From: Candidatus Hodarchaeota archaeon | Lineage (GTDB): Archaea > Asgardarchaeota > Lokiarchaeia > Sigyniarchaeales > SOKP01 | DNA: 64,000 nt | Assembly (NCBI GenBank): GCA_048886685.1 | Contig: JBHLKM010000004.1 | Location: 82,486-146,485, forward strand | Direction: 5' to 3' | Shown: piece by piece, positions 2,805 through 64,000 of the stretch | How the letters are laid out: every line of letters starts with the position of its first letter | Position numbering within the stretch: position 1 is the stretch's first letter | Translations under genes and position numbers: made by a program | The notes under the pieces: model-generated | Databases searched by the model: none | What the model was told of the DNA's origin: nothing | Seen by the model: only the letters and a program-made list of their open reading frames with translations

Positions 2805-3182
2805 ATGGTAAAGATTTTTATCGTAGATGATGATCAATCCCTACAACGGTTATATACATTGATCTTAAAAGAAGCTGGTTTTGAAATTATAGATACAGCA
2901 TTCAATGGTAAGGTAGCTGTCGAAAAATATAATAAGCTTAAAGAAAAACCTGATATTGTTTTAATGGATCATCGAATGCCGATAAAAAATGGACTCGATG
3001 CCATGACTGAAATCTTAAAGGTAAATAATCATACAAAAATAATATTTGCGAGCGCGGATATTAGTATAAAGCAAAAGGCCATTGAACTTGGCGCTTGTGC
3101 TTTTCTCGATAAACCGTTTAATATACATAAGTTGCTGACTATTATCGAGAAGATCTGTGAAGAATTAGTTTTGAGTAATTGA
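2805..3182 (+). CDS. Single-domain response regulator (CheY-like receiver)
   Basis: IVDDD..PDIVLMDHRMP..GLD..FASA..FLDKPF receiver motifs. Confidence 0.95.
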   Translation: MVKIFIVDDDQSLQRLYTLILKEAGFEIIDTAFNGKVAVEKYNKLKEKPDIVLMDHRMPIKNGLDAMTEILKVNNHTKIIFASADISIKQKAIELGACAFLDKPFNIHKLLTIIEKICEELVLSN

Positions 3183-25354: not shown

Positions 25355-26815
25355 TTAATTAGAAATCTCATTAAGCATTTTAGCAGCAAGCTCTCTTACG
25401 TCTACATCTGCGTCATTTAAGAGCTTTTTCAATAATTTTTTAAATTCTTCTGATTCAAAGTCAAATTTACTCAAAGCCTTAATTAGATTATATCTAATAA
25501 GCCAATCATCATCATGAATTAATTCTAAAAATGCATCATAAACCTTTTTATCTTTAATTTCGCTTAAAATCTTTATAGCACATCTTTTAATTTCATTGTT
25601 TTTACTATTTAAATCCTTAATAAGCGTATTTATAATAACTTTTTTATTATTATCGCTCATAAGCCTATACATTCTTTTAAAAAGAGAAATTTGGAAGTGA
25701 TCTGGAAAATCATAAGCAAATGAATTTGTAGAGCTTTCTACATCAATCAATTCTATAGCTTGAGTCTCCAATTCTAACAATTTATTATTTAATAATTCAT
25801 TTTCTTTTTGATATTTTAATAATTCAGATTTTATATTATCATATTGTTCTCTCATTTTAGCAAATTCTAATGCTTGCTCCGTTGAAATTGTTGTAGGTTC
25901 GATCGAATTTTCTAGCTCTTTTTGTAAGAACTTTAATTGGGCATCATAGTCTTCAATTTCTAATTTTAAAGCTTCAATCTTTCTATTTGCCAATTCTAAT
26001 TCTTCTGAATTTACTTCTTCAATTCTTTCTTGTATTTTAACATTTAAGGTTTCAATTTCTGAGGTTAAATCTTCAATCCTTTTGTTTGCCAATTCTAATT
26101 CTTCTGAGTTTACTTTTTTAATTCTTTCCTGCAGTTGAGCGTTCAATGAATCTATTTCTGATGTTAAATTATCAATCTTTTTATTTGCTAATTCTAATTC
26201 TTCTGAAACTAATTCTTCAACTCCTTCTTGTATTTGGGCTTTTAATGATTCTATTTCAACTCGTAATAAGCCATTTTGTTCCATTAATTGAAAATTTAAT
26301 CGTTTTATATTCACCATTTCTTCATTTTTTCCGATCTGTGCCTTATTAGTTTCTTCAAGATCAATATTTTCTGATTCGATAGTCTCGAGTTGATTTTTCA
26401 AATCTTCAATCTGATTTCTATATTTTTCGTTCTCTTCAGATAATTTTAGTATCAGTTCTTGAGCTTCAATTAATTCATTTTTTTGTGGTTCAAATGTCCC
26501 ATTTTTAGGTTTTTCTACCTGAGATGTTAATCCATCAATTTTTTCGTTTAATTTATCGATTTTTTCATCTTTTCTTGATAAATCTTTTCTTTGAGAGTTA
26601 ATCATTTCCTTTAGAATATTAATCTCACTCGGTAAATCATTTTGAGTGAAACTAATTTGATCTCCTTGTTCTTCAATCAATAAATGCTGTTCTTTTATTC
26701 TAAATTTTAAACGATTAATCTCTTCCTTTAAAGAATAGATTATCGATTCTAATTCTGCTCGAGTTTTAGTTTCTTTTTCAACGATATTAATTAAATCCTT
26801 TAAATCTTTATCCAT
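25355..26815 (-). CDS. Long coiled-coil protein with C-terminal HEAT repeats
   Basis: E/K/L-rich coiled coil of about 340 aa, then LNSKNNEIKR / IHDDDWLIRY / LNDADVDVRE HEAT motifs. Confidence 0.8.
   Translation of the reverse strand: MDKDLKDLINIVEKETKTRAELESIIYSLKEEINRLKFRIKEQHLLIEEQGDQISFTQNDLPSEINILKEMINSQRKDLSRKDEKIDKLNEKIDGLTSQVEKPKNGTFEPQKNELIEAQELILKLSEENEKYRNQIEDLKNQLETIESENIDLEETNKAQIGKNEEMVNIKRLNFQLMEQNGLLRVEIESLKAQIQEGVEELVSEELELANKKIDNLTSEIDSLNAQLQERIKKVNSEELELANKRIEDLTSEIETLNVKIQERIEEVNSEELELANRKIEALKLEIEDYDAQLKFLQKELENSIEPTTISTEQALEFAKMREQYDNIKSELLKYQKENELLNNKLLELETQAIELIDVESSTNSFAYDFPDHFQISLFKRMYRLMSDNNKKVIINTLIKDLNSKNNEIKRCAIKILSEIKDKKVYDAFLELIHDDDWLIRYNLIKALSKFDFESEEFKKLLKKLLNDADVDVRELAAKMLNEISN
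25960..26260 (-). repeat. Intragenic 99-bp (33-aa) tandem repeat, about 3 copies
   Basis: TGC(C/T)AATTCTAATTCTTCTGA at 25988, 26087 and 26186; protein SEELELAN repeated. Confidence 0.85.
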
Positions 26816-36293: not shown

Positions 36294-36458
36294 TTTTTAT
36301 TAAGAATTAAGCATAATTTTTATTTTAAATTCTTTAATTAAATAAGTCTAAATTGCTTTTTCCAAACCACTTCCAGATCCTGTTCCTGAGTTAGAAAGTG
36401 AGTTAAACAGGCTTAAGGGTAATAATTCCGAATAATATGATAGAGAGGTATCTTATCT

Positions 36459-36671
36459 ATGACCAAAATTAGTGCATTTGAAAGAGTATGCATCTTAACG
36501 GTTGACGATCTTGAAAAGAAGATCCTAAAGGTTTTAGGAATTTTGCGAGATATAGAAGAGAAAGAGTTATTTTCTTATGTAGAAAAGGAGATCAAGCAGC
36601 TCTTCACTTATTATAAGGAGCGAGTTATCTTTATCAAGTTTAAACCGGAAATAATACAAGAGGTATTATGA
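36459..36671 (+). CDS. Hypothetical 70-aa protein in an operon-like fragment
   Basis: GAGAGGT SD at 36443-49; ATGA overlap with a short downstream ORF. Confidence 0.6.
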   Translation: MTKISAFERVCILTVDDLEKKILKVLGILRDIEEKELFSYVEKEIKQLFTYYKERVIFIKFKPEIIQEVL

Positions 36672-36832
36672 CCAGAATCGATCCTAAAGTTAAAGTGTAG
36701 AGGATCTAAGTTCTTAAAAGGAAACTTATATTCAATAAAATAAAAAAAATTTTAATAGACTAGTGGCTATAGGAAATATAGAAATTTAATAGCTGAAACT
36801 TTTTGGGTAATTTAACCTAACCATAATTGCTT

Positions 36833-37072
36833 TTATTTGTTTTTTTCTCCCCTTTCTTCCTTATATTGCCTTAATATATCAATTATTCCTTTTATAAGCC
36901 AATAAAATATTGGAACAGAAAGCAAATAAGAAAAATTTGGCATTGGTGGTATTAGATAATAAAAGAATATATTTAAGATAAAACCATATATCCAAAGGCA
37001 TATAAAAAATATATGTACTAATAATTGATATATTTTTTTCTTTTTAGTTAAATCAAATATTATATCGTTCAT
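36833..37072 (-). CDS. Small two-TM membrane protein
   Basis: AAGGA upstream of ATG; two hydrophobic helices. Confidence 0.6.
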   Translation of the reverse strand: MNDIIFDLTKKKKIYQLLVHIFFICLWIYGFILNIFFYYLIPPMPNFSYLLSVPIFYWLIKGIIDILRQYKEERGEKNK

Positions 37073-37163
37073 TCTTTCCTTTAATAATTAAATTAATTTA
37101 ATGTTTAACAAATTTGTAAATAGATTTGCGTATGATTCTATTTCTTTCATATTTTTTAAATTT

Positions 37164-37277
37164 AATTAAGTAGGCTTTGTGACGTTGTTTATTTAAGTTT
37201 AAGAAATTTAATTTAAATATAATTAAGTACGTTTTATGACTTACTTTACTTAAGTTTAGGTTTTTTAATTTAAGTAT
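37164..37277. repeat. Two degenerate 57-bp tandem units 3' of TPR-longin gene 1
   Basis: AATTAAGTAGGCTTTGTGAC.. at 37164 and AATTAAGTACGTTTTATGAC.. at 37221; the unit start recurs at 37278. Confidence 0.7.
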
Positions 37278-37304
37278 AATTAAATTATCAATAAAAACTC
37301 GTAT

Positions 37305-39257
37305 TTATGCAATTAGAGGAACACTTTTTTCAATAAAGATTTTAGTTATCAACGGTTCCAGAGAAGGGATATCTTCTAACTGTACCATTCTGCATGTTTG
37401 ATTATATTCATTAAAAGTCTTCCATATGGTTGTATCCTCTTTAATATTATCAATAAATTTTATTACTCTTTGCTGCGCACGATATGATTGTCCCTTGAAT
37501 AAATAACATACTAAGAAGGGATGAAGGGAATTCATAATAATAGTATACTCCCCAAAATTAGCCCTATTGAGTCCCTCAGAGAACATCTCATCACTAAAGG
37601 AATTTATAGCTGTCAAAAAACCTCCAAAAAGATGATCTTCGAAAGCCCATTCTTCCGCAAAGGATTCAGAGAATACAGGCCTTCCCCCCTCTGAAATAAT
37701 CAAAAGTACGATAGGGTCTTCGTCAGTAATCTCAGGAACAGCTATTTCTCGTTTTCGGATCATTTTCTCCATCTGTTCATTTAGTTGTGCTAACTTCAAG
37801 CGTTCAGATAAGGGTGCTTTTGATTCTTTTAATTTGTCCCACACATCTAATTGCTTAATTAATTCATCGTGCTCATTCGAAATTTTCATGGCTATTAAAT
37901 TAAGACCGTATTTTTCGGCAATTTCCTGAGCTCGTGTCAAAAAGCGTCGAGCTTCGTTCGTATCAAAAGTTATTAATGCTACTTTGGCTTGTAATAGGTA
38001 GGTTTCAGCGAGAATCCGAAACGAGTTTATTTTCTCAGAAGATTCTAATATACGATTTAGATTAGTTTTAATCTCTTTTAGCACTTCAGCATCGTTAGTT
38101 ATGCGTAGTTCAACCAATAATAAATCACAAAGCTCTAATAATGCGTCAACTTTTAAATAAAATCCTTCTTCTTCAATAATTTCTTTATATATTTCTTCTG
38201 CTTTGACCCGATTTTTAGCTCGTGTGCTTGTTTTCAGTAGGTTAGCGTTCGTAAAGCGAAAGTGTAAATTAATCCATTTACTATCCTCTTGTTCGTTGAG
38301 CTGCTTTAAGCGGTTAAAGTATTTTTGGGCTAATACAAGATCGCCCATATCGACTGCTAACTCAATCAAACCACAGAGAGTTATAGCTGTAGTCATATTA
38401 ACCCCGAGTTCCTCTCTTAATGTTAGACCTCGTTCTAGATGCTCTAAAGCTTGACCAAAATTACCCTTTGCTTTATAGATATCCCCAATTTGGGTAAGTG
38501 AAGCTGCGATCCACTGTTTATTATTAATTTTTTCGAATAATTGTAAACATTGCTCTCCATACATGAGACCTCGATCTAATTCACCTTTATCTTTATGAAA
38601 AATCATTAACCATGCCAAGACCCAAGCAATATTATACTTGCTATTACTTTCCTCCGCAAATAATAAGCTTCGCTTTAGATATTCAATAGCATGATTCAAT
38701 TCACCTTTTTTCATACCAAGAATACCAGCGATGATATAAAGGGATTCAGTAATTATAACTTTATTGCCTAATTTCTCTCCCAGTACTAAGCTCTGTTCTA
38801 AAAACTTTAGTTGATCATCCGTTTTATAAGAAGATGATAGATTTTTCATACCTTTAACTAAATAAATCTGAGCTTCTCGTTGCATGTAATCTTCTGGTAA
38901 TTCTTGGGTAAATTTTTTTAATAATTCTTCGGCTTGGTTAACGTCATTAATAGCTTCCTCTTCTCTATCAAGAAATTTTAAAACCTTCGCGCTGAGTAAT
39001 AAGGCGTCAACTGATTGGAGATTTCTTCCCAACTCTAAACTCTCTTTATATGTTTGATCTGCTATTTTAAGCATTTCCTCAAATTTCCATTGCCAAAATA
39101 AAAGGTTGCACTTGAGGAGCTGACATGATACTTTATCCTGAAGTGTGAGGTTCTTCATTTGCTCGAGATTGTCTATAAGTTGGAGGGCTTCATCATACTT
39201 GCCTTCATTAATGAGTTTTTTTGCCTGAGTTAGCTCCTTTAATTCTGAGTGGGACAT
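37305..39257 (-). CDS. Tetratricopeptide repeat protein with C-terminal longin-like domain
   Basis: About 40-aa TPR units (GELDRG.., GNFGQAL..); C-terminal LLIISEGGRPVFS..LFGGFLTAINSF; start 39257 or 39269. Confidence 0.85.
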   Translation of the reverse strand: MSHSELKELTQAKKLINEGKYDEALQLIDNLEQMKNLTLQDKVSCQLLKCNLLFWQWKFEEMLKIADQTYKESLELGRNLQSVDALLLSAKVLKFLDREEEAINDVNQAEELLKKFTQELPEDYMQREAQIYLVKGMKNLSSSYKTDDQLKFLEQSLVLGEKLGNKVIITESLYIIAGILGMKKGELNHAIEYLKRSLLFAEESNSKYNIAWVLAWLMIFHKDKGELDRGLMYGEQCLQLFEKINNKQWIAASLTQIGDIYKAKGNFGQALEHLERGLTLREELGVNMTTAITLCGLIELAVDMGDLVLAQKYFNRLKQLNEQEDSKWINLHFRFTNANLLKTSTRAKNRVKAEEIYKEIIEEEGFYLKVDALLELCDLLLVELRITNDAEVLKEIKTNLNRILESSEKINSFRILAETYLLQAKVALITFDTNEARRFLTRAQEIAEKYGLNLIAMKISNEHDELIKQLDVWDKLKESKAPLSERLKLAQLNEQMEKMIRKREIAVPEITDEDPIVLLIISEGGRPVFSESFAEEWAFEDHLFGGFLTAINSFSDEMFSEGLNRANFGEYTIIMNSLHPFLVCYLFKGQSYRAQQRVIKFIDNIKEDTTIWKTFNEYNQTCRMVQLEDIPSLEPLITKIFIEKSVPLIA

Positions 39258-39373
39258 ACAATCATCCATATTTTAGAGATTTGAAAAGTTTGGATTATAA
39301 TTTTTCAGATACAAGTTATATATTAAGATAATGACAATTTTAAATATAATTATGTGGGTAAAAACACACCTTC

Positions 39374-39411
39374 TACTTAAATATTGGATACTATCACCTT
39401 TTATTTAAGTA
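39374..39411. promoter_or_regulatory. 10-bp inverted repeat upstream of TPR gene 1
   Basis: TACTTAAATA-N18-TATTTAAGTA. Confidence 0.3.
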
Positions 39412-39477
39412 TTCATTTAAAAAAGTAACTAAAGTACGCTAAGAAATCAGCAAAGCTATTTTGTATATTGTATATAA

Positions 39478-39651
39478 AAAAGAAGAAAACAGAGAGAGGA
39501 TAGAGAGGATAAGAAAGGATTCAAAATAATCAAAATTGGGAATTCTCAGGGAGTAATTATAGATAGCAGAACATTAGAATATCTTGGTTTAGATGAGGGG
39601 GATTGGGTTGAGCTTATTATAAGAAAAGCTGAAGAGGAAAAAGAAGACTAA
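39478..39651 (+). pseudogene. AbrB/MazE/SpoVT-type DNA-binding protein frame with no canonical start
   Basis: ..KGFKIIKIGNSQGVIIDSRTLEYLGLDEGDWVELIIRK..; in-frame TAA at 39475 and no ATG/GTG/TTG before the domain. Confidence 0.7.
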
Positions 39652-39938
39652 TTTTTTATCTCTTTTGTTATAGTGTTGTCATGACAAAAACGACATCATA
39701 TCTATATATTATATTAGAAAATAAAAAAGCACAAAAATTTATTATCTAAATATGGAAAGGATTTTACACACAAATTAGAATCCACAAATTTAGCGCTGTA
39801 AGGGGTTTATATAATCAGTAAGACTAAGATTATCTAATATTGTGAGGATTATTATAACAAAAAATCAAACAAAAAAACCGGCTTAAAAATATATGTTATC
39901 ATTAAATAATTAGAATCGACTTTTTGTTTATAAAAAAG

Positions 39939-40253: not shown

Positions 40254-40404
40254 AGAATAAAATTTGAAGAAATATACCTAAATTCATGAGACATTAATTT
40301 AAATTTGCATAATTTTATTCTTATTACATAAGAATATAATTTTTAATTAGGTAAATTGGGATATTATTTAGTAATTTCAATAGCTGTTAGGTGTGTTTTT
40401 TATA

Positions 40405-43400
40405 ATGAAATTAAAAACTCTCAAAAATAGAAGAATTATCATTGCATTTACAATTCTAGGCTTCTTATCATTAAACATATTCTTTTTGAATTTGAATACA
40501 AATCAAAACTCAGGAATAAACCATCGAAATAATGATGACAATTTAGATAAAAATTTAAAACTTCAGGATTTAGCTTCTGATAACACCTATAGTGGAATAG
40601 GGGCACCTTGGAATGTAACCCACTGGGCTAACCGAACAGATTATAATTTAGAGATCGAATTTGAAAACAATACGTATGATATTCTAGAAATCCCTTTAAC
40701 TACGGGTTGGGAAGGTTACACATTAAATGCTAAGATAAATAATTTATTTGATAAACGAAATTGGTGTAATGGTTCATTTAATTTTGGAACTGATGATAAT
40801 ATAGAAACTCCAGATGATGATACGGAATTGATTGAAAATAACTTTCAAAATTGGACTTTTGGTTATGAGGATGTTATCACTTACCCAGCTCCTCCCCCAC
40901 CTGATTGGTTTGTTAATCCAATGAGTGGTAATTACTTAGATACTACTTATGGCCCAACCGATGGCCATGATTGCTTGGAATTAAGAATAGACGGAATGGA
41001 TCTTAGTGGAGATTATTATTATGATCAAGGTGATAGATGTTGGTGGAATAGTTCTTTTGAGATTCCAAGAGGTAAAGTTATTGATAGTAAATTAGAATTT
41101 GAAGTAAAAGCCATTCATATAATGGATTTTAATGATTTCGAGTTAAGATTTTATTTAAATAATGAAAGGATTTACTCAATTGGGGGATATAATATAAAAC
41201 AGCTTCATGGAACTTCATGGGGTAGTTTTTCAATACCACAAGGTCTTTGGACTAATTCTTCAAATGTATATACTAATCCAGTAAATTCATCAGTTATAGA
41301 TATTAGAGTGGAATTAAGACAATTAATCGAATGCGGATATGGTAGTGGTTTTACAAATTACGAGTATCACCAAATTTTTATTGATAATGTAAAGTTAACT
41401 GTAAAGGCGGAAGCGAAACCATCACAAATCCAGCTTAAAATGAATGAACATACAGTAAATGATATTGTTTGGGGTAAAGGAACAGTTAATCAAGTAAATA
41501 ATTGGACTACAAGTCTTGTCCAAGTAAATTATTCCAGCACTGATGTTGGGGAATTAGGAGGTTATATAATAGATTTAAATTCTGATATAAATCTATATGT
41601 AAGAAAAGATAGTCCAGAGACTAATTATGAAACTAATACCGGCTCATTAGGCACCGGCTTTTCTGTGAATAATAATAGTATAGTAAATTGGGAGTGTTAT
41701 TCTTATTTTGCGGTTCCAACAGGTTATCAAGAAACAGAAATGAGACTACAATTCCCTACAGATGTAAATATAACATGGATATCTGAACCTCAAGATCCAA
41801 ATACTAACAGATTGAGTTTGTGTGATAATTCAACTCAAGGACTTTTAATAATTCCTGTAAATGCTATATCTACAACTCCAGATGGGTATTGGAGGATTGA
41901 AGCAACATCTCCAAATTATTGTGAGCGATTAACTATATATAATAATGTGACAGGCGAATGGCTTCAAAATAATACATTTTTAAGTGGAGATTTCATTAAC
42001 ATAACTGGAAAAATAACAGATTCGTCATTGATTTCAAGTTATATCCAACAAACTGAAGCTCAGCTCCATATAAAATTTCCAAATGGTACAGTTTGGTATA
42101 GCCAAAACCAATTAAAATCTCCTGATAGTAATGGTTACATCTATTTTGATAACTTCCAGATACCTTCATTACCCCCAAATTATGAAGTTGGGGAATATCA
42201 GGCAATAATTACATGGAACAATTCATATATTTCAGGACTAAATGAAACTGGAGTTATTTGTAAGGATTTTACCATAATACACAAATCTCTCTTAATTTCT
42301 GATCAATATTTTTACGATGAAATTTTTGAAGGTGAAATGATTAATTTGAAGGTTTCCTTTAACGATAAAGAAAATTATGATGCAATACAGAATGCCATAG
42401 TATATTTAGATAATTTTAGTGGGGGAAGACAATATTTTAGTGAAATTAGTCCTGGGTATTACTTTCTGGAGTTTGATACTACTGGTGGAGTTGCCGATAA
42501 TAACACTCTTACAATTTATGCTAATTCTACATCATATACAAATTCGCAAGTAAATGTCAGTGTTGAATTAATTCAACAAACAGTCCTTACTGCTGAAGAA
42601 TATCCAACTATGCAAGTTATCTGGAATGATAATTTTACAATCCATCTTAATTATACTATGAAATCAACAGGAGATGGTATATCAACTATGCCTACAAATA
42701 ATTGGCTTGGTGAAACCCATACTGTTGAAGGGAATCCTGGAGAGTATAATATCACTTGTAATAGTTCTGCTTATGAAGTGAATAAAATTCATTCTTTAAT
42801 AATAAATGCGGATAAGGAGGGATATGAATCCAAAACGATAATTATAGGAATTTTTTTGATAAAAAGACAAATAAATATGTCAGTATATATAGATTCTTTG
42901 AAAGTTCCAGAATTATATCAAGCTAAAAAATCTTTTCATGAAGTCCTATCAGTATCTGTAAGGATTTCCGATACGGTTACAAGTGATTTCTTATCTGGTG
43001 AAGTATTAACTTTAATAAGTGAAAATTATATTCAAAATTTAACGTATACCGCTGATTTCTGGTATAATCTGTCTATTCCTTGTTCTCCCTCAAATTTCTC
43101 ATTAGGATTGAATTCAATTGATATTCGTTTTATAAAGGATAATTATGAGATATGTATTTTTTCGTTTCAATTATTAATTAATCAAATTGAGTTAACCATT
43201 GAAACAATTGGATTTGAAGATACAATTAATGCCGAAAAAGGAGAAACAATAACAGTTCAGCTACAGTTATTAGATCCTAATACAAATAAAAGTGTTGAAA
43301 ATGCATCTATTACTTATTCATGGAAATATGGAATAGGTTCAATTAATCAAACTACTCCAGGCATGTATCAAGCAAGTATAATTTTACCGGAAGATATACA

Positions 43401-44337
43401 AGGAAATTATAAATTCGAATTAATTATAACTCCTGATAATTCAACTTATAGAACAACTATATACTCTTTTATAGTTATAATTGGTGATCCTATTCCCGGT
43501 GGAAATCAATTACCAAGTATTCTATTATGGATAATCATCGCGATTTTAGTGAGTATAGTTAGTGTTTTAGGTGCTTTAAGTATGAGATCTTACGTGATTT
43601 TACCGCGAAAGAGGAAGAAAGAATCAGAATTATTATCAAAAACACAAAGATTTAAGGATCTTAAAAATATTCAGGCTATTGTAGTTGTCCATAAGTTGAG
43701 CGGGATACCTATTTATTCGAAGAGCTATTCGATTTTGGAAAAACACAAGAAGGAATTATTTTCAGGATTTATTCAAGCTATAACCACAGTTGGAGAAGAA
43801 TTTTCTGAAAGGGAAGCTAGTATGGAAGAATCTAAAGACTCATCGAAAGGTTATGGCATTGAGAAAATAATTGAATTGGATTTCAAGTATTTCTATTGTT
43901 TAATTGCAGATAAGGATGATATAAGAGTTGTATTCATCTTAAGAGAAAAATCTTCTGAAAGGTTAAAAAGTCAAGTATCTAATTTAATTTTAGCTTTAAA
44001 CCTAAAATTATCTATAGAATTGGAAAATTGGGATGGTTCATTAGACAGGTTCGAAGAAGTGGTTCCTTTAATAATAAATGAATACTTTGAATTGCACTAC
44101 AAAGGCTCTTTCAGATTACCTGGAAAGATAAATCTCTTTCAATTACGAAAAGATAAAAGCTTGAACAAGTTAGAAGTCCGTACGTTAAACGTGATCCAAT
44201 CAATATCAAAAAGAAACAATAATATTGTTAATCTGGATAATGTTATAGAATTAGTTCACGAGGAAAATAAAGATCTCATAATTGTAGCTATTGAATCGTT
44301 GATAGAGAAAAAATTTATTTTACCGATTAATTCTTAA
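40405..44337 (+). CDS. Large cell-surface protein: N-terminal anchor, beta-rich ectodomain, single TM, cytoplasmic longin-like and winged-helix-like tail
   Basis: Many NxS/T sequons and beta-strand repeats; TM ILLWIIIAILVSIVSVLGAL followed by RKRKK; IQAIVVVHKLSGIPIYSK..LFSGFIQAI. Confidence 0.8.
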   Translation: MKLKTLKNRRIIIAFTILGFLSLNIFFLNLNTNQNSGINHRNNDDNLDKNLKLQDLASDNTYSGIGAPWNVTHWANRTDYNLEIEFENNTYDILEIPLTTGWEGYTLNAKINNLFDKRNWCNGSFNFGTDDNIETPDDDTELIENNFQNWTFGYEDVITYPAPPPPDWFVNPMSGNYLDTTYGPTDGHDCLELRIDGMDLSGDYYYDQGDRCWWNSSFEIPRGKVIDSKLEFEVKAIHIMDFNDFELRFYLNNERIYSIGGYNIKQLHGTSWGSFSIPQGLWTNSSNVYTNPVNSSVIDIRVELRQLIECGYGSGFTNYEYHQIFIDNVKLTVKAEAKPSQIQLKMNEHTVNDIVWGKGTVNQVNNWTTSLVQVNYSSTDVGELGGYIIDLNSDINLYVRKDSPETNYETNTGSLGTGFSVNNNSIVNWECYSYFAVPTGYQETEMRLQFPTDVNITWISEPQDPNTNRLSLCDNSTQGLLIIPVNAISTTPDGYWRIEATSPNYCERLTIYNNVTGEWLQNNTFLSGDFINITGKITDSSLISSYIQQTEAQLHIKFPNGTVWYSQNQLKSPDSNGYIYFDNFQIPSLPPNYEVGEYQAIITWNNSYISGLNETGVICKDFTIIHKSLLISDQYFYDEIFEGEMINLKVSFNDKENYDAIQNAIVYLDNFSGGRQYFSEISPGYYFLEFDTTGGVADNNTLTIYANSTSYTNSQVNVSVELIQQTVLTAEEYPTMQVIWNDNFTIHLNYTMKSTGDGISTMPTNNWLGETHTVEGNPGEYNITCNSSAYEVNKIHSLIINADKEGYESKTIIIGIFLIKRQINMSVYIDSLKVPELYQAKKSFHEVLSVSVRISDTVTSDFLSGEVLTLISENYIQNLTYTADFWYNLSIPCSPSNFSLGLNSIDIRFIKDNYEICIFSFQLLINQIELTIETIGFEDTINAEKGETITVQLQLLDPNTNKSVENASITYSWKYGIGSINQTTPGMYQASIILPEDIQGNYKFELIITPDNSTYRTTIYSFIVIIGDPIPGGNQLPSILLWIIIAILVSIVSVLGALSMRSYVILPRKRKKESELLSKTQRFKDLKNIQAIVVVHKLSGIPIYSKSYSILEKHKKELFSGFIQAITTVGEEFSEREASMEESKDSSKGYGIEKIIELDFKYFYCLIADKDDIRVVFILREKSSERLKSQVSNLILALNLKLSIELENWDGSLDRFEEVVPLIINEYFELHYKGSFRLPGKINLFQLRKDKSLNKLEVRTLNVIQSISKRNNNIVNLDNVIELVHEENKDLIIVAIESLIEKKFILPINS

Positions 44338-61224: not shown

Positions 61225-62190
61225 TTAAAATCTAATTACATCAATAGACTCTTCTTTTCCATTATTTATCCTCAGAAGATTTGGATCTTTAATAATATTT
61301 CCTATAATATTAGCATTTAACCCATATTCTTGAAATGTTTCTATAATTTCTTCGCAGTTTATTTCAGGGGCAGTCAATAGAAATGAGGTAGTTAAATACA
61401 TTTGAATATAGGTTTCTAAATTATATCCATTATCCTGTAATTTTGGGGGAATTTTAATTTTTGATATATTCACATCTGCTCCTACATTTGAATAATTTAT
61501 CATTTGAAATAGTGTTCCAAAAATTCCACCATTAGATATGTCTTTTGATGCATTGGCTAGATGTTTTTGCGCAATCATATTCATAGCTTTTCTCTTTCTT
61601 AAAACTTCTTCGGAACTTTTAAAAGTGGTAGTATCATAATATAGGTTGCTTGCTTTACCCTTTTTTCCATCGAAATCAACTGCTAATATAATATTATCTC
61701 CTACTTGTGCATTTCCTGCAGAAATGTAATCTTCCTTTTTAATTTCACCAATCATTGTAGAACTTAACTCATAACATTTTCCATGGACGTTAGTATGTCC
61801 TCTAATAATCGGAACATTAAATTTCTGGGAACCCGCACATATTCCTTCAAGCAATTCTTTACAGATATCTGGTTCTTTCACTGAAATAATTATGCTTGCT
61901 GCTAATGGGACTCCCCCACATGCATAAATATCATCTACACTAACCAGAATTGAGCTAAAACCAGCACCAAATGGGAAATTTTCGATAAAAGTAGTTTTTA
62001 TTCTATCTGTAGTAACCAGTATATATTTATCATCATCTTTTATAGTGGCAGCGTCTTCACCTATATCTGTGAATATATTTGCACTTTTAAACGAATTTTT
62101 GTCAATAAATTGAACTATAGGACTAATTTGTCGCTTTTCTAGAATGTATTGATTATTTTTAATGCTATTAGCAATCTTTTTAAGTGTCAT
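61225..62190 (-). CDS. AIR synthase-related (PurM/SelD superfamily) protein
   Basis: IGEDAA, PFGAG..VSVDDIYACGG.P, RGHT, KDISNGG. Confidence 0.82.
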   Translation of the reverse strand: MTLKKIANSIKNNQYILEKRQISPIVQFIDKNSFKSANIFTDIGEDAATIKDDDKYILVTTDRIKTTFIENFPFGAGFSSILVSVDDIYACGGVPLAASIIISVKEPDICKELLEGICAGSQKFNVPIIRGHTNVHGKCYELSSTMIGEIKKEDYISAGNAQVGDNIILAVDFDGKKGKASNLYYDTTTFKSSEEVLRKRKAMNMIAQKHLANASKDISNGGIFGTLFQMINYSNVGADVNISKIKIPPKLQDNGYNLETYIQMYLTTSFLLTAPEINCEEIIETFQEYGLNANIIGNIIKDPNLLRINNGKEESIDVIRF

Positions 62191-62208
62191 CTATGAATTT
62201 AATATGAA

Positions 62209-62555
62209 GTTATTAATAAATAACTGAGTAAAATTACTCGGTTTACTTATTTATACTTAATATTGTTATTAATAAATAACTGAGTAAAAATACCCAGTTT
62301 ACTTAATTATAGTTATATAAAGTTATTAATAAATAACTGAGTAAAATTACCCAGTTTACTTATTTATACTTAATATAGTTATTAATAAATAACTGAGTAA
62401 AATTACCCAGTTTACTTATTTATACTTAATATTGTTATTAATAAATAACTGAGTAAAATTACCCAGTTTACTTATTTATACTTAATATTGTTATTATAAA
62501 TTAAATACGTTAAATAACATTATTTACTTAATTTTAAGTTATTTTGTTTAAGTTT
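62209..62555. repeat. Tandem array of 56-57 bp palindromic units: 5 near-identical copies plus 1 degenerate copy
   Basis: Unit GTTATTAATAAATAACTGAGTAAAATTACCCAGTTTACTTATTTATACTTAATATT starts at 62209, 62265, 62322, 62378, 62434; degenerate in-register copy from 62490. Confidence 0.95.
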
Positions 62556-62583
62556 AGTTTAAATCATCAATAAAAACTAAAAT

Positions 62584-63999
62584 CTAAGCAATTAAGGGGA
62601 CACTTTTATCTATGAAGATTTTGGTTATCATAAGCTCAAGAGAAGGAATATCTTTTACTTGAATTTCCTTATTTAACCGGTAAAAATCCCTAAAAGTCTG
62701 CCAGGCATCTTTATCTTTCTGTAATTCGTCAATGAAATATCTAATCCTCTGTTGTGCCGAATATGATTGCCCCTTGTATACATAACACATCAGAAAGGGT
62801 GAAACAGAGTTCATTAGGAGAGTATGTTCACCAAAAGTAGCTCGATCAAGCCCCTCAGAGAATTTTTCATTTATAAATGAATTAATTGCTGTAAAGAAAC
62901 TCCCAAGTAGATCATTCTCCAAAGACCATTGTTCAGTAAATGATTGAGAGAATATTGGTATTCCCCCTTCTGAGACAACTAAAAGTAGAACAGGATCTTC
63001 ATCTGAAAGTTGAGGAGCTTCCACTACTCGCCTTCTGATCATATTCTCCAATTGTTCATTTAATCGAGCAAATTCTATACGATCTTTTATTGATGAACTT
63101 GATTCTTTTAAACTCTCCCATACATTTAATTGTTTTAGAAGATCATCATGTTCATTTGAAATTTTTATAGCTAGCAATTTAAGACCGAATTTTTCGGCGA
63201 TTTGCTGAGCTTGAGTTAAAAATCGCTGAGCCTCCTTCATATCAAAGGTTAATAGAGATAATTTAGCTTTTAACAAGTAAGTTTCGCATTGAACCGAGAA
63301 AGAACCCGTATTTTCGGCAATATTTAATAATTGAGCAATAAGAGGTTTGATTTCCTCCAGTACCTCTAAGTCGTTAGTCATTCGTAACTCGGTTAAGAGC
63401 AATTCACATAAGTTAGTTAGTGTTTTTATTGTTAGCTCGTAATCTTCATCCTTATCTTCAAGAATTTGCTTCAATACTTTCTCGGATTCAGCTCTATTCT
63501 GAGCTCGAGTGCTCGTTTTCAGCAATAAAGCTTTATTTAAGAGATACCTCAAATTATAATCTTTTTCTTTAAGCTGATTGTTTAGTTGTTCATAACGGTG
63601 AAGAAATTGTTGCGATCGTTCAAGGTCTCCCTTTTCAATTAATGTTTGAATTAAATAATCGTAAATACTAGCCAGACGTCTTAAATTTCCCGAATCTTCA
63701 TATAGCGCCAAGCATTGTTCTATACACTCTAAAGCACGATCTAATTCTCCTCTCTGTCTATAGGCTTCCCCCATATTATTAAGAACACCAGCAATCCACC
63801 TTTTAATGTTAAGGTCACTGAAAATTGTCAACGCTTGCTCATAAAGCTTAATACCACGATCCAAATCACCTTTAAATATATATACTGCTGCCATACTATA
63901 AAAAGAAAATCCGATAAGCCATTTAATGCCACTTTCCTCGGCGATAATCATTCCTCGTTCCAGGGTTTTTAAAGCACGATCTAATTCTCCTCTCCTTAT
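62584..63999 (-). CDS. TPR protein with C-terminal longin-like domain, paralog of 37305-39257; 5' end outside the window
   Basis: Frame open to the edge (..IRRGELDRALKTLERGM..); shared LLKTSTRA.NR, IKISNEHD, SEGG.P.FS, KGQSY.AQQR, ITKIFI.KSVPLIA. Confidence 0.88.
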   Translation of the reverse strand: MRRGELDRALKTLERGMIIAEESGIKWLIGFSFYSMAAVYIFKGDLDRGIKLYEQALTIFSDLNIKRWIAGVLNNMGEAYRQRGELDRALECIEQCLALYEDSGNLRRLASIYDYLIQTLIEKGDLERSQQFLHRYEQLNNQLKEKDYNLRYLLNKALLLKTSTRAQNRAESEKVLKQILEDKDEDYELTIKTLTNLCELLLTELRMTNDLEVLEEIKPLIAQLLNIAENTGSFSVQCETYLLKAKLSLLTFDMKEAQRFLTQAQQIAEKFGLKLLAIKISNEHDDLLKQLNVWESLKESSSSIKDRIEFARLNEQLENMIRRRVVEAPQLSDEDPVLLLVVSEGGIPIFSQSFTEQWSLENDLLGSFFTAINSFINEKFSEGLDRATFGEHTLLMNSVSPFLMCYVYKGQSYSAQQRIRYFIDELQKDKDAWQTFRDFYRLNKEIQVKDIPSLELMITKIFIDKSVPLIA

Positions 64000-64000
64000 A

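Follow-up and report, generated by a model that had tools for sequence, protein, structure and literature searches.

Stacked ends of a small, cargo-carrying mobile cassette as the probable origin of a spacer-less palindromic array in a Lokiarchaeial genome

What is the nature of an array of palindromic units that lies directly behind an archaeal gene? The question is raised by a window of 64,000 nucleotides (the whole stretch of DNA analyzed here; positions 82,486 to 146,485 of contig JBHLKM010000004.1, hereafter C4) from Candidatus Hodarchaeota archaeon of the Lokiarchaeia (GCA_048886685.1, a 4.4 Mb draft assembly of Promethearchaeota type, hereafter G000). Between the stop codon of TPR2, a gene for a tetratricopeptide repeat (TPR) protein, and the start of an AIRS-family gene, units of 56 or 57 bp follow one another without spacers. 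A preliminary description had regarded such units as a trailing feature of TPR-longin genes, serving as recombination or integration sites that mobilize TPR cassettes, as protein-binding sites, or as 3'-untranslated region (3'-UTR) hairpins or small RNAs. Based on comparisons with other genomes (G labels) and JGI contigs (L279 and L276), we propose that the array probably represents the stacked left ends of a non-autonomous mobile cassette that carries cargo genes. These cassettes measure 1.5-2.6 kb and possess inverted ends, each formed by a 30-bp arm beside a 6-bp core, with the core present on both sides.

In relatives of G000, about 100 bp separate the AIRS gene from its divergent neighbor, a Rag/Arf GTPase gene, with neither array nor TPR gene in-between, and the 48 empty sites read in 47 genomes of the same genus hold a single hexamer. 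In G000, this intergenic region is split by an insert of 3,326 bp (C4 144705-148030), which has TAATAA on both sides and inverted ends identical at 25 of 30 positions. The left core occupies 62214..62219 of the window (plus strand) and recurs beyond it at C4 148031-148036. It is preceded by the left host half-site (62196..62213, no strand assigned), which according to the alignment of empty sites is conserved in the genus and belongs to the AIRS upstream region; this half of the target is single-copy in 44 of 50 genus genomes and was not found in the other genera searched. To its left lies the host AIRS-family gene (61225..62190, minus strand; 321 aa; Pfam AIRS/AIRS_C), whose start codon and the far edge of the core are 29 bp apart; the array is located 18-29 bp upstream of the AIRS start. 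The cargo gene TPR2 is likewise on the minus strand, its 3' part covering 62584..64000 and the whole gene (731 aa) running to C4 147264. Beyond the window follow, in order, inverted B and A modules, a core, a truncated small membrane gene, the right end, a further core and the Rag/Arf GTPase gene (C4 148100). Contigs from more than one run, all of one study, span the right junction as well as the join between the last A module, the B module and the TPR gene. Among Logan contigs, a joint that skips the insert contains undetermined letters and probably derives from a related organism.

The insert defines the register of the array, in which each unit consists of the core TAATAA and an end module of about 50 bp. 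The A module combines a 30-bp arm, containing a GT-N6-AC dyad, with a 20-bp tail that resembles the host half-site left of the core. Each A module closes with the host half-site and the core in copied form, and every end thereby contains an internal target. Module A1 (62220..62269, plus strand, as are all modules of the array) begins the 3,326-bp insert. Core and A2 (62270..62326, 57 bp) have a tail nearest to the left end of the G045 element and to the inner right end, and cores with A3 and A4 (62327..62438) are extra copies, presumably products of amplification, as other hosts have a single A. Core and A5 (62439..62494) form the left end of an inner, 2,590-bp TPR2 cassette, with the inverted partner at C4 147470-147519 (33/37 identical). 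The final segment, 62495..62583, comprises an internal core, the B module and the conserved 3' flank of the TPR cargo; the same A|B junction is found in L279, L273 and G047, and B alone in G129. In two close relatives of G000, G038 (L207:590-680) and G052 (L206:630-720), the host target carries a 47-bp tandem duplication with a joining segment like the A-module tail, possibly a cassette scar or the origin of the cassette end.

Considered as repeats, the first five units start at 62209, 62265 (57 bp), 62322, 62378 and 62434. The degenerate sixth, which is the B module, begins at 62490 in register with the others, to which it is identical at 34 of 50 positions; scores as high as that of the sixth unit, or higher, are reached at only 8 positions in 8.8 million. 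In these respects the preliminary description was accurate, as it was in identifying the sixth unit as the homologue of the array behind a second gene, TPR1 (80% identity over 80 bp). The unit alignment also confirms the dyad and the compensatory change within GT-N6-AC, the G-T wobble on the TPR sense strand (four of five copies), and the lack of spacers and of a coding frame (the longest stop-free frame has 21 codons). The proposed copy-number difference of two versus six, in contrast, compares unlike things, since TPR1 is followed by two B-type units and TPR2 by five A-type units and one B-type unit. Units 4 and 5 are identical to each other, whereas units 1, 2 and 3 are each distinct, and the array is therefore not a pure assembly collapse. 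A one-off slippage or assembly artefact without wider meaning might be suspected from the near identity of units 3-5 and from short-read contigs that break in the array; yet there are four different unit sequences in the array, and in at least six further assemblies (G045, G047, G129, G125, L273 and L279/L276) the unit coincides with the edges of inserts. For the unit itself this reading is already refuted, and for the array we consider it barely credible.

Cassettes are also present in other hosts. In three host lineages (G000, G047 and L279/L276), a cassette occupies one and the same nucleotide of the AIRS/GTPase region in one orientation, and the filled genomes G000 and G047 belong to different clades of the genus. 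The G047 insert, 1,719 bp with an A plus B left end, encodes a protein of 451 aa, which inspection identifies as a beta-propeller repeat protein. In L279/L276, a 2,569-bp cassette consists of one A, one B, TPR2 and the mirrored B' and A', with the core on both sides. Its TPR2 is 91% identical to that of G000, as compared to 76% for the host AIRS and 75% for the GTPase; the host AIRS is 85% identical to that of G011. The 1,525-bp element of G045, located between convergent genes, carries two small membrane genes and shares blocks of 93-97% identity with the outer element of G000, with AIRS at 75%; its site is empty in the close relative G009, where a single hexamer is present. L273 contains TPR2 at an unrelated locus (95% over 2.5 kb, one A plus B). 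In another genus, a TPR gene of G129 lies between inverted B modules and G125 holds a copy 95% identical to it elsewhere; relatives have both sites without TPR gene, that of G129 being too diverged to define the exact hexamer. The flanking core is identical on both sides in four of six inserts and matches at five of six bases in the other two, and end identity across inserts is 21-25/30 or 32-33/37. Open reading frames (ORFs) in the G000, G045, G047, G129 and L279 inserts are cargo only, without integration or transfer genes.

Because the cargo is more similar than the host genes, these comparisons argue for horizontal movement and point to a cassette that ferries the TPR gene between Asgard species. 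Empty sites, duplicated cores, inverted ends and cassettes with a single pair of units in other hosts all bear out the earlier suggestion of integration sites that mobilize TPR cassettes, and for one TPR clade that suggestion holds. The units do not merely trail a gene, however, as they bracket the cassette on both sides and the cargo is often not a TPR gene. Literature searches returned no description of these cassette ends; the cassettes make up a genuine family of small Asgard elements, not described before, that encode no enzyme, carry their own target and nest.

Cargo and junctions show further features in individual genomes. Several genomes (G000 C6:148282-148716; L048, L049 and L079) contain a resident copy of the small membrane cargo gene, situated behind an mvhD-like gene; its homology to the cassette begins exactly at a TAATAA hexamer, and the copy in the G000 insert comprises the C-terminal half only. 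In G059 (L048:2380-3313), an ORF resembling an IS110-family transposase by inspection, with a GC-richer non-coding segment upstream, adjoins the resident small gene. An 11-bp tandem duplication is present in the TPR promoter beside the B module in both G129 (L146:8040-8090) and G125 (L158:3830-3860). The G129 locus contains a hybrid module fused at the dyad center, and the right side of the L273 segment is cut just past a dyad, hinting at a second breakage point. In L273, a direct repeat of about 30 bp (reverse strand 296-340 and 3108-3147) brackets the TPR2 segment, which suggests a second route of movement. The left-flank pentamer of G047 (L075) matches the element end, and the four nearest relatives differ at one base; in this one case, either a better-matching target was chosen or exchange took place left of the core.

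How, then, did five left ends come to stand in a row? As the ends carry an internal target copy, cassettes nest, and the G000 insert is separable into two elements. Its inner part, from A5 to C4 147519 (2,590 bp), corresponds to the L279 cassette, and the remainder, consisting of a left A, the truncated membrane gene and the right end, to a deleted form of the G045 element. The position of the inner cassette is exactly that of the internal core after the A tail in G045, and the inner (TPR2) and outer (membrane-gene) elements are each found alone elsewhere. We propose that two left ends resulted when a membrane-gene cassette already in place received a TPR2 cassette (A-B...B'-A') at its internal core. 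Three further ends may then have been added through unequal exchange or, more probably, slippage, the cores being spaced 56 bp apart. With TPR2 as cargo, the number of A copies is one in L279 and L273 and five in G000.

The dyads could also be read as single-strand hairpins for an HUH (Y1/REP-type) transposase, as in IS200/IS605, palindrome-associated transposable elements (PATEs) and REPINs, with the array as a cluster of the repetitive extragenic palindrome (REP) kind. Across 18 units, the dyad covaries (17 cells changed on both sides as compared to 8.2 when shuffled, 0/500, numbers inflated by related sequences), and A-type units fold modestly (z -1.6 to -2.9). B units, on the other hand, do not fold (z near 0), PATEs lack the terminal inverted repeats and target duplications that the cassettes possess (PMC3119063), no Y1 transposase was found in G000, and its approximately 14 copies are confined to two loci, leaving this explanation improbable. 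Folding is weak and limited to A units, and the dyad is more simply read as a symmetric protein-binding site.

Protein binding of a different kind is implied if the unit is mainly a transcription-factor operator or TATA module, multiplied into an array under selection on the promoter of the AIRS-threonine biosynthesis operon. The array indeed ends 18 bp from the AIRS start, the core is positioned at -29, where AT content peaks mildly ahead of genes, the tail copies host upstream sequence, and several junctions fall in promoter regions. Nevertheless, none of the 48 empty AIRS promoters contains the dyad, nor does the upstream region native to the G125 neighbor in 29 genomes, a finding by which the B module was also rejected as a native operator. 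Moreover, the dyad is present at insert boundaries only, one of them between convergent genes (G045). We therefore deem selected amplification very improbable, and a regulatory side effect of the array possible. The genome-wide TATA test yielded only the mild AT peak near -30, and targeting of TATA boxes is accordingly not claimed.

A general association of the unit with TPR genes, as first envisaged, did not materialize. A position weight matrix with a reversed-genome control and two profile models place the unit at 2 of 30 TPR paralogues of G000, both on C4. BLAST with the array retrieved further copies nearby only, namely behind TPR1, inverted 5' of TPR2, and inverted again 500 bp beyond (C4 147452-147534 and 147974-148044, both just outside the window). 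Being present in inverted form 5' of TPR2 and just upstream of AIRS, the unit is not a 3' feature either. Strong matches occur in 5 of about 150 genomes. Rfam and the IMG/VR scans returned no match to the unit; weak G000 matches (C11:12253, C21 and C7) were rejected as near control level, a JGI match (L114) as a chance match within bacterial coding sequence and a G134 pattern match as lying inside a coding region, and a G074 pattern match scores near background. In a further reading, the units would serve the TPR transcript as 3'-UTR hairpins or terminators, or give rise to small RNAs from it. In its favor, four units possess a terminator-like stem followed by a T-rich tail when read on the sense strand of the TPR gene (5 found against 0.0 expected). 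Weak folding, the missing Rfam match, inverted copies 5' of the gene and at non-TPR inserts, and 28 of 30 paralogues without unit nonetheless make this reading highly unlikely, and this part of the preliminary description finds no support.

With only 2 of 30 paralogues touched, and cargo that is often non-TPR, the cassette does not explain the expansion of TPR genes in Lokiarchaeia. An unrelated second repeat of about 33-45 bp is present in 42 copies in G000, in co-oriented runs that delimit single genes (C15, C25, C12, C19, C34, C5, C20 and others). It lies within 450 bp of 9 of 30 TPR paralogues, several of which are flanked on both sides, and is a better candidate than the array for a part in that expansion.

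Which enzyme moves the cassettes is less firmly indicated than what the array is. With little more than even confidence, we favor a tyrosine recombinase that would act in trans on arm-core-arm sites, via a circle joining the ends across the 6-bp core. The core is non-palindromic with its orientation kept, and similar pentamers flank it in host and element; this fixed core, the similar pentamers, the repeated use of one nucleotide and orientation, and the use of the internal core as a junction are consistent with arm-core-arm recombination. Candidates for the recombinase are XerA of the chromosome and the integrase of a virus or plasmid absent from the assembly. A XerA-like gene is present in all five carrier genomes (G000, G045, G047, G129 and G125), where the protein is the sole PF00589 match in four and G047 has one more. 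In G000, this gene is located directly beside a Cdc6/Orc1-like gene (L081, C2:181883-185356). Y1, IS110, DDE_1 and resolvase genes were not found in G000, nor were rve, Cas1 or a large serine recombinase in the five carriers. If a host-encoded XerA ran the system in Lokiarchaeia, cassettes with ends that copy host promoter sequence and regenerate the landing site upon insertion would nest by themselves, stack their ends into arrays, and move genes of eukaryote-signature type (TPR plus Roadblock/longin-like) with their promoters between Asgard species and genera, the element itself encoding no enzyme. We regard this as a tentative and rather unlikely scenario. The target is no more dif-like than background, which weakens the case for XerA.

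Several findings weigh against the proposed account. Nesting yields two left ends, not five, and leaves unit 2, with a tail like G045 and the inner right end, oddly placed among units with derived tails. The exact count of identical units is not fixed by the reads, as short-read contigs break in the array, and L273 and G125 each lack one end. In about 150 genomes with incomplete assemblies, the JGI metagenomes and IMG/VR, the search for an autonomous element bearing these ends was negative, so that the enzyme class can only be inferred, and no circle junction was seen in Logan contigs, which break within the array. As dif (11-6-11), the target was rejected: it matches a provisional dif sequence at 16/22 positions, with 772 G000 sites as good, and the literature searched contained no dif for this archaeal group. 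Metagenome-assembled genomes often lose transposases, which renders the negative enzyme searches weak. Finally, a DDE transposase would account just as well for inverted ends and a duplication of 6 bp.

In that alternative, the same cassette is moved in trans by a DDE transposase, after the manner of miniature inverted-repeat transposable elements (MITEs) or mobile insertion cassettes, with the 6 bp as a true duplication of a preferred, AT-rich target sequence and the A and B modules as repeated transposase-binding sites. Tandem sub-terminal modules are common in transposon ends. The terminal inverted repeats abut an exact 6-bp duplication in four of six inserts, empty sites have one hexamer, and MITEs share their ends and duplication length with a helper (PMC3119063). 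Against this, the same nucleotide and orientation are used in three lineages, the termini are AT-rich and variable, copy number is low, the internal A|B core itself serves as junction (G045 and G000), and neither an insertion sequence with these ends nor a DDE_1 or rve gene was found. We judge a DDE transposase possible, if unlikely.

Known systems share some but not all properties of the cassette. Like cis-mobilizable elements (CIMEs), it shows accretion at an attachment site (PMC5704250). In common with CIMEs, it contains no integration or transfer genes, is bounded by direct repeats of a core that the empty site has once, and integrates and accretes site-specifically where an element already resides. 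It differs from CIMEs, integrative and conjugative elements (ICEs) and integrative mobilizable elements (IMEs) in long inverted-repeat ends with an internal target, a length of 1.5-2.6 kb with a single cargo, and a site in a divergent intergenic region instead of a gene or tRNA 3' end; a parent ICE or IME, or an integrase, was not found. In Tn916-type transposons, 6 bp separate the ends from the flanks. The cassette resembles Tn916 in inverted ends next to AT-rich flanks and a target similar to the element end (PMC5812530). For Tn916, however, coupling sequences need not be homologous, insertion lacks site specificity, and Int and Xis are encoded by the element (PMC5812530), whereas in the cassette the hexamers match at 5-6 of 6 bases, one site is reused and neither protein is encoded, and it is thus not a member. 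MITEs, which form a haloarchaeal class beside SMR and PATE elements, and the cargo-carrying mobile insertion cassettes of DDE insertion sequences are likewise non-autonomous, with terminal inverted repeats, a short duplication and an enzyme in trans (PMC3119063). The cassette has such repeats and a constant 6-bp duplication, exact in four of six inserts, but reuses one nucleotide in one orientation, nests within itself, and carries kilobase cargo at low copy number; no helper with shared ends was found in G000 or about 150 genomes. As no cognate enzyme was found, CIMEs and MITEs both remain candidate classes.

Similarity to Xer/dif sites and integrative mobile elements exploiting Xer (IMEX) consists in a 6-bp center between inverted arms, one conserved chromosomal target and a host XerA in all carriers (PMC2958812, PMC5357621, PMC8371274); the cassette target, though, does not exceed background in likeness to the provisional dif, is conserved within the genus only, and is not the only site used. 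Among Asgard elements, Yucahu-i of Atabeyarchaeia also carries cargo and has an AT-rich 11-bp att and a nested mini-element, but encodes its own tyrosine integrase, unlike the cassette (PMC11529989). Heimdallarchaeum aloposons carry cargo as well, yet feature giant genes and tRNA integration (PMC8813620). Neither has been described with the cassette's ends or an end array, and an aloposon is ruled out here by the absence of giant tandem genes and tRNA integration. PATEs, IS200-IS605 and REP elements share near-terminal palindromes, but the terminal inverted repeats and duplication rule out membership. A Tn7-like element, with TG...CA termini, a 5-bp duplication and TnsB, is excluded because the TG register gives inverted, not duplicated, flanking pentamers, and there is no rve match in the five carriers; a CRISPR array because spacers are absent and Cas1 was not found in the five carriers. 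An integron cassette array, in which a co-oriented attC follows each gene and an integron integrase is present, is excluded because the sites bracket the gene in inverted orientation and the only tyrosine recombinase of G000 is XerA-like (no attC model was run).

The stacked-end interpretation explains a spacer-less palindromic array, and the locus offers a case, documented by empty sites and base-exact junctions, that points to transfer of a TPR/Roadblock-longin-like gene from one Asgard species to another by a cassette that encodes no enzyme. This bears on the spread of Asgard genes that are patchy and lineage-specific; most of the TPR expansion is not accounted for, given 2 of 30 paralogues and strong matches in 5 of about 150 genomes. 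As ends, core and target are defined to the base, the mover is testable in vitro with short substrates.

A second cargo gene of the same TPR clade, TPR1 (37305..39269, minus strand; 654 aa), lies at lower coordinates in the window. Two B-type modules, each behind an AT hexamer, are located 3' of it (37160..37272, plus strand), and another 5' of it (39345..39392, plus strand), abutting a conserved TPR promoter block; homologues of the latter are present 5' of TPR2 and of the G125 and G129 TPR genes. TPR1 and small ORFs form an insert of about 3.3 kb (36367..39685, no strand assigned) that is absent from three close relatives and whose outer ends do not match the unit. Among its frames are a 70-aa ORF, a 79-aa membrane ORF and a short frame that is AbrB-like by eye (39478-39651, no Pfam match). 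For the longin label attached to the TPR proteins, Pfam gives Fuz_longin_1 at E=0.007, and the top Foldseek matches are nearly all Roadblock/longin proteins; the AlphaFold model has a pLDDT of 51 and no Foldseek match reaches E<=0.001. A C-terminal Roadblock/longin-like domain is hence weakly supported for TPR2. Elsewhere in the window, a 99-bp coding tandem repeat of 3.1 copies (25952-26257) lies within a 486-aa ORF (25355-26815). A 1,314-aa ORF (40393-44337) has no Pfam match and only weak DNA matches in close relatives, and may represent another recent acquisition.
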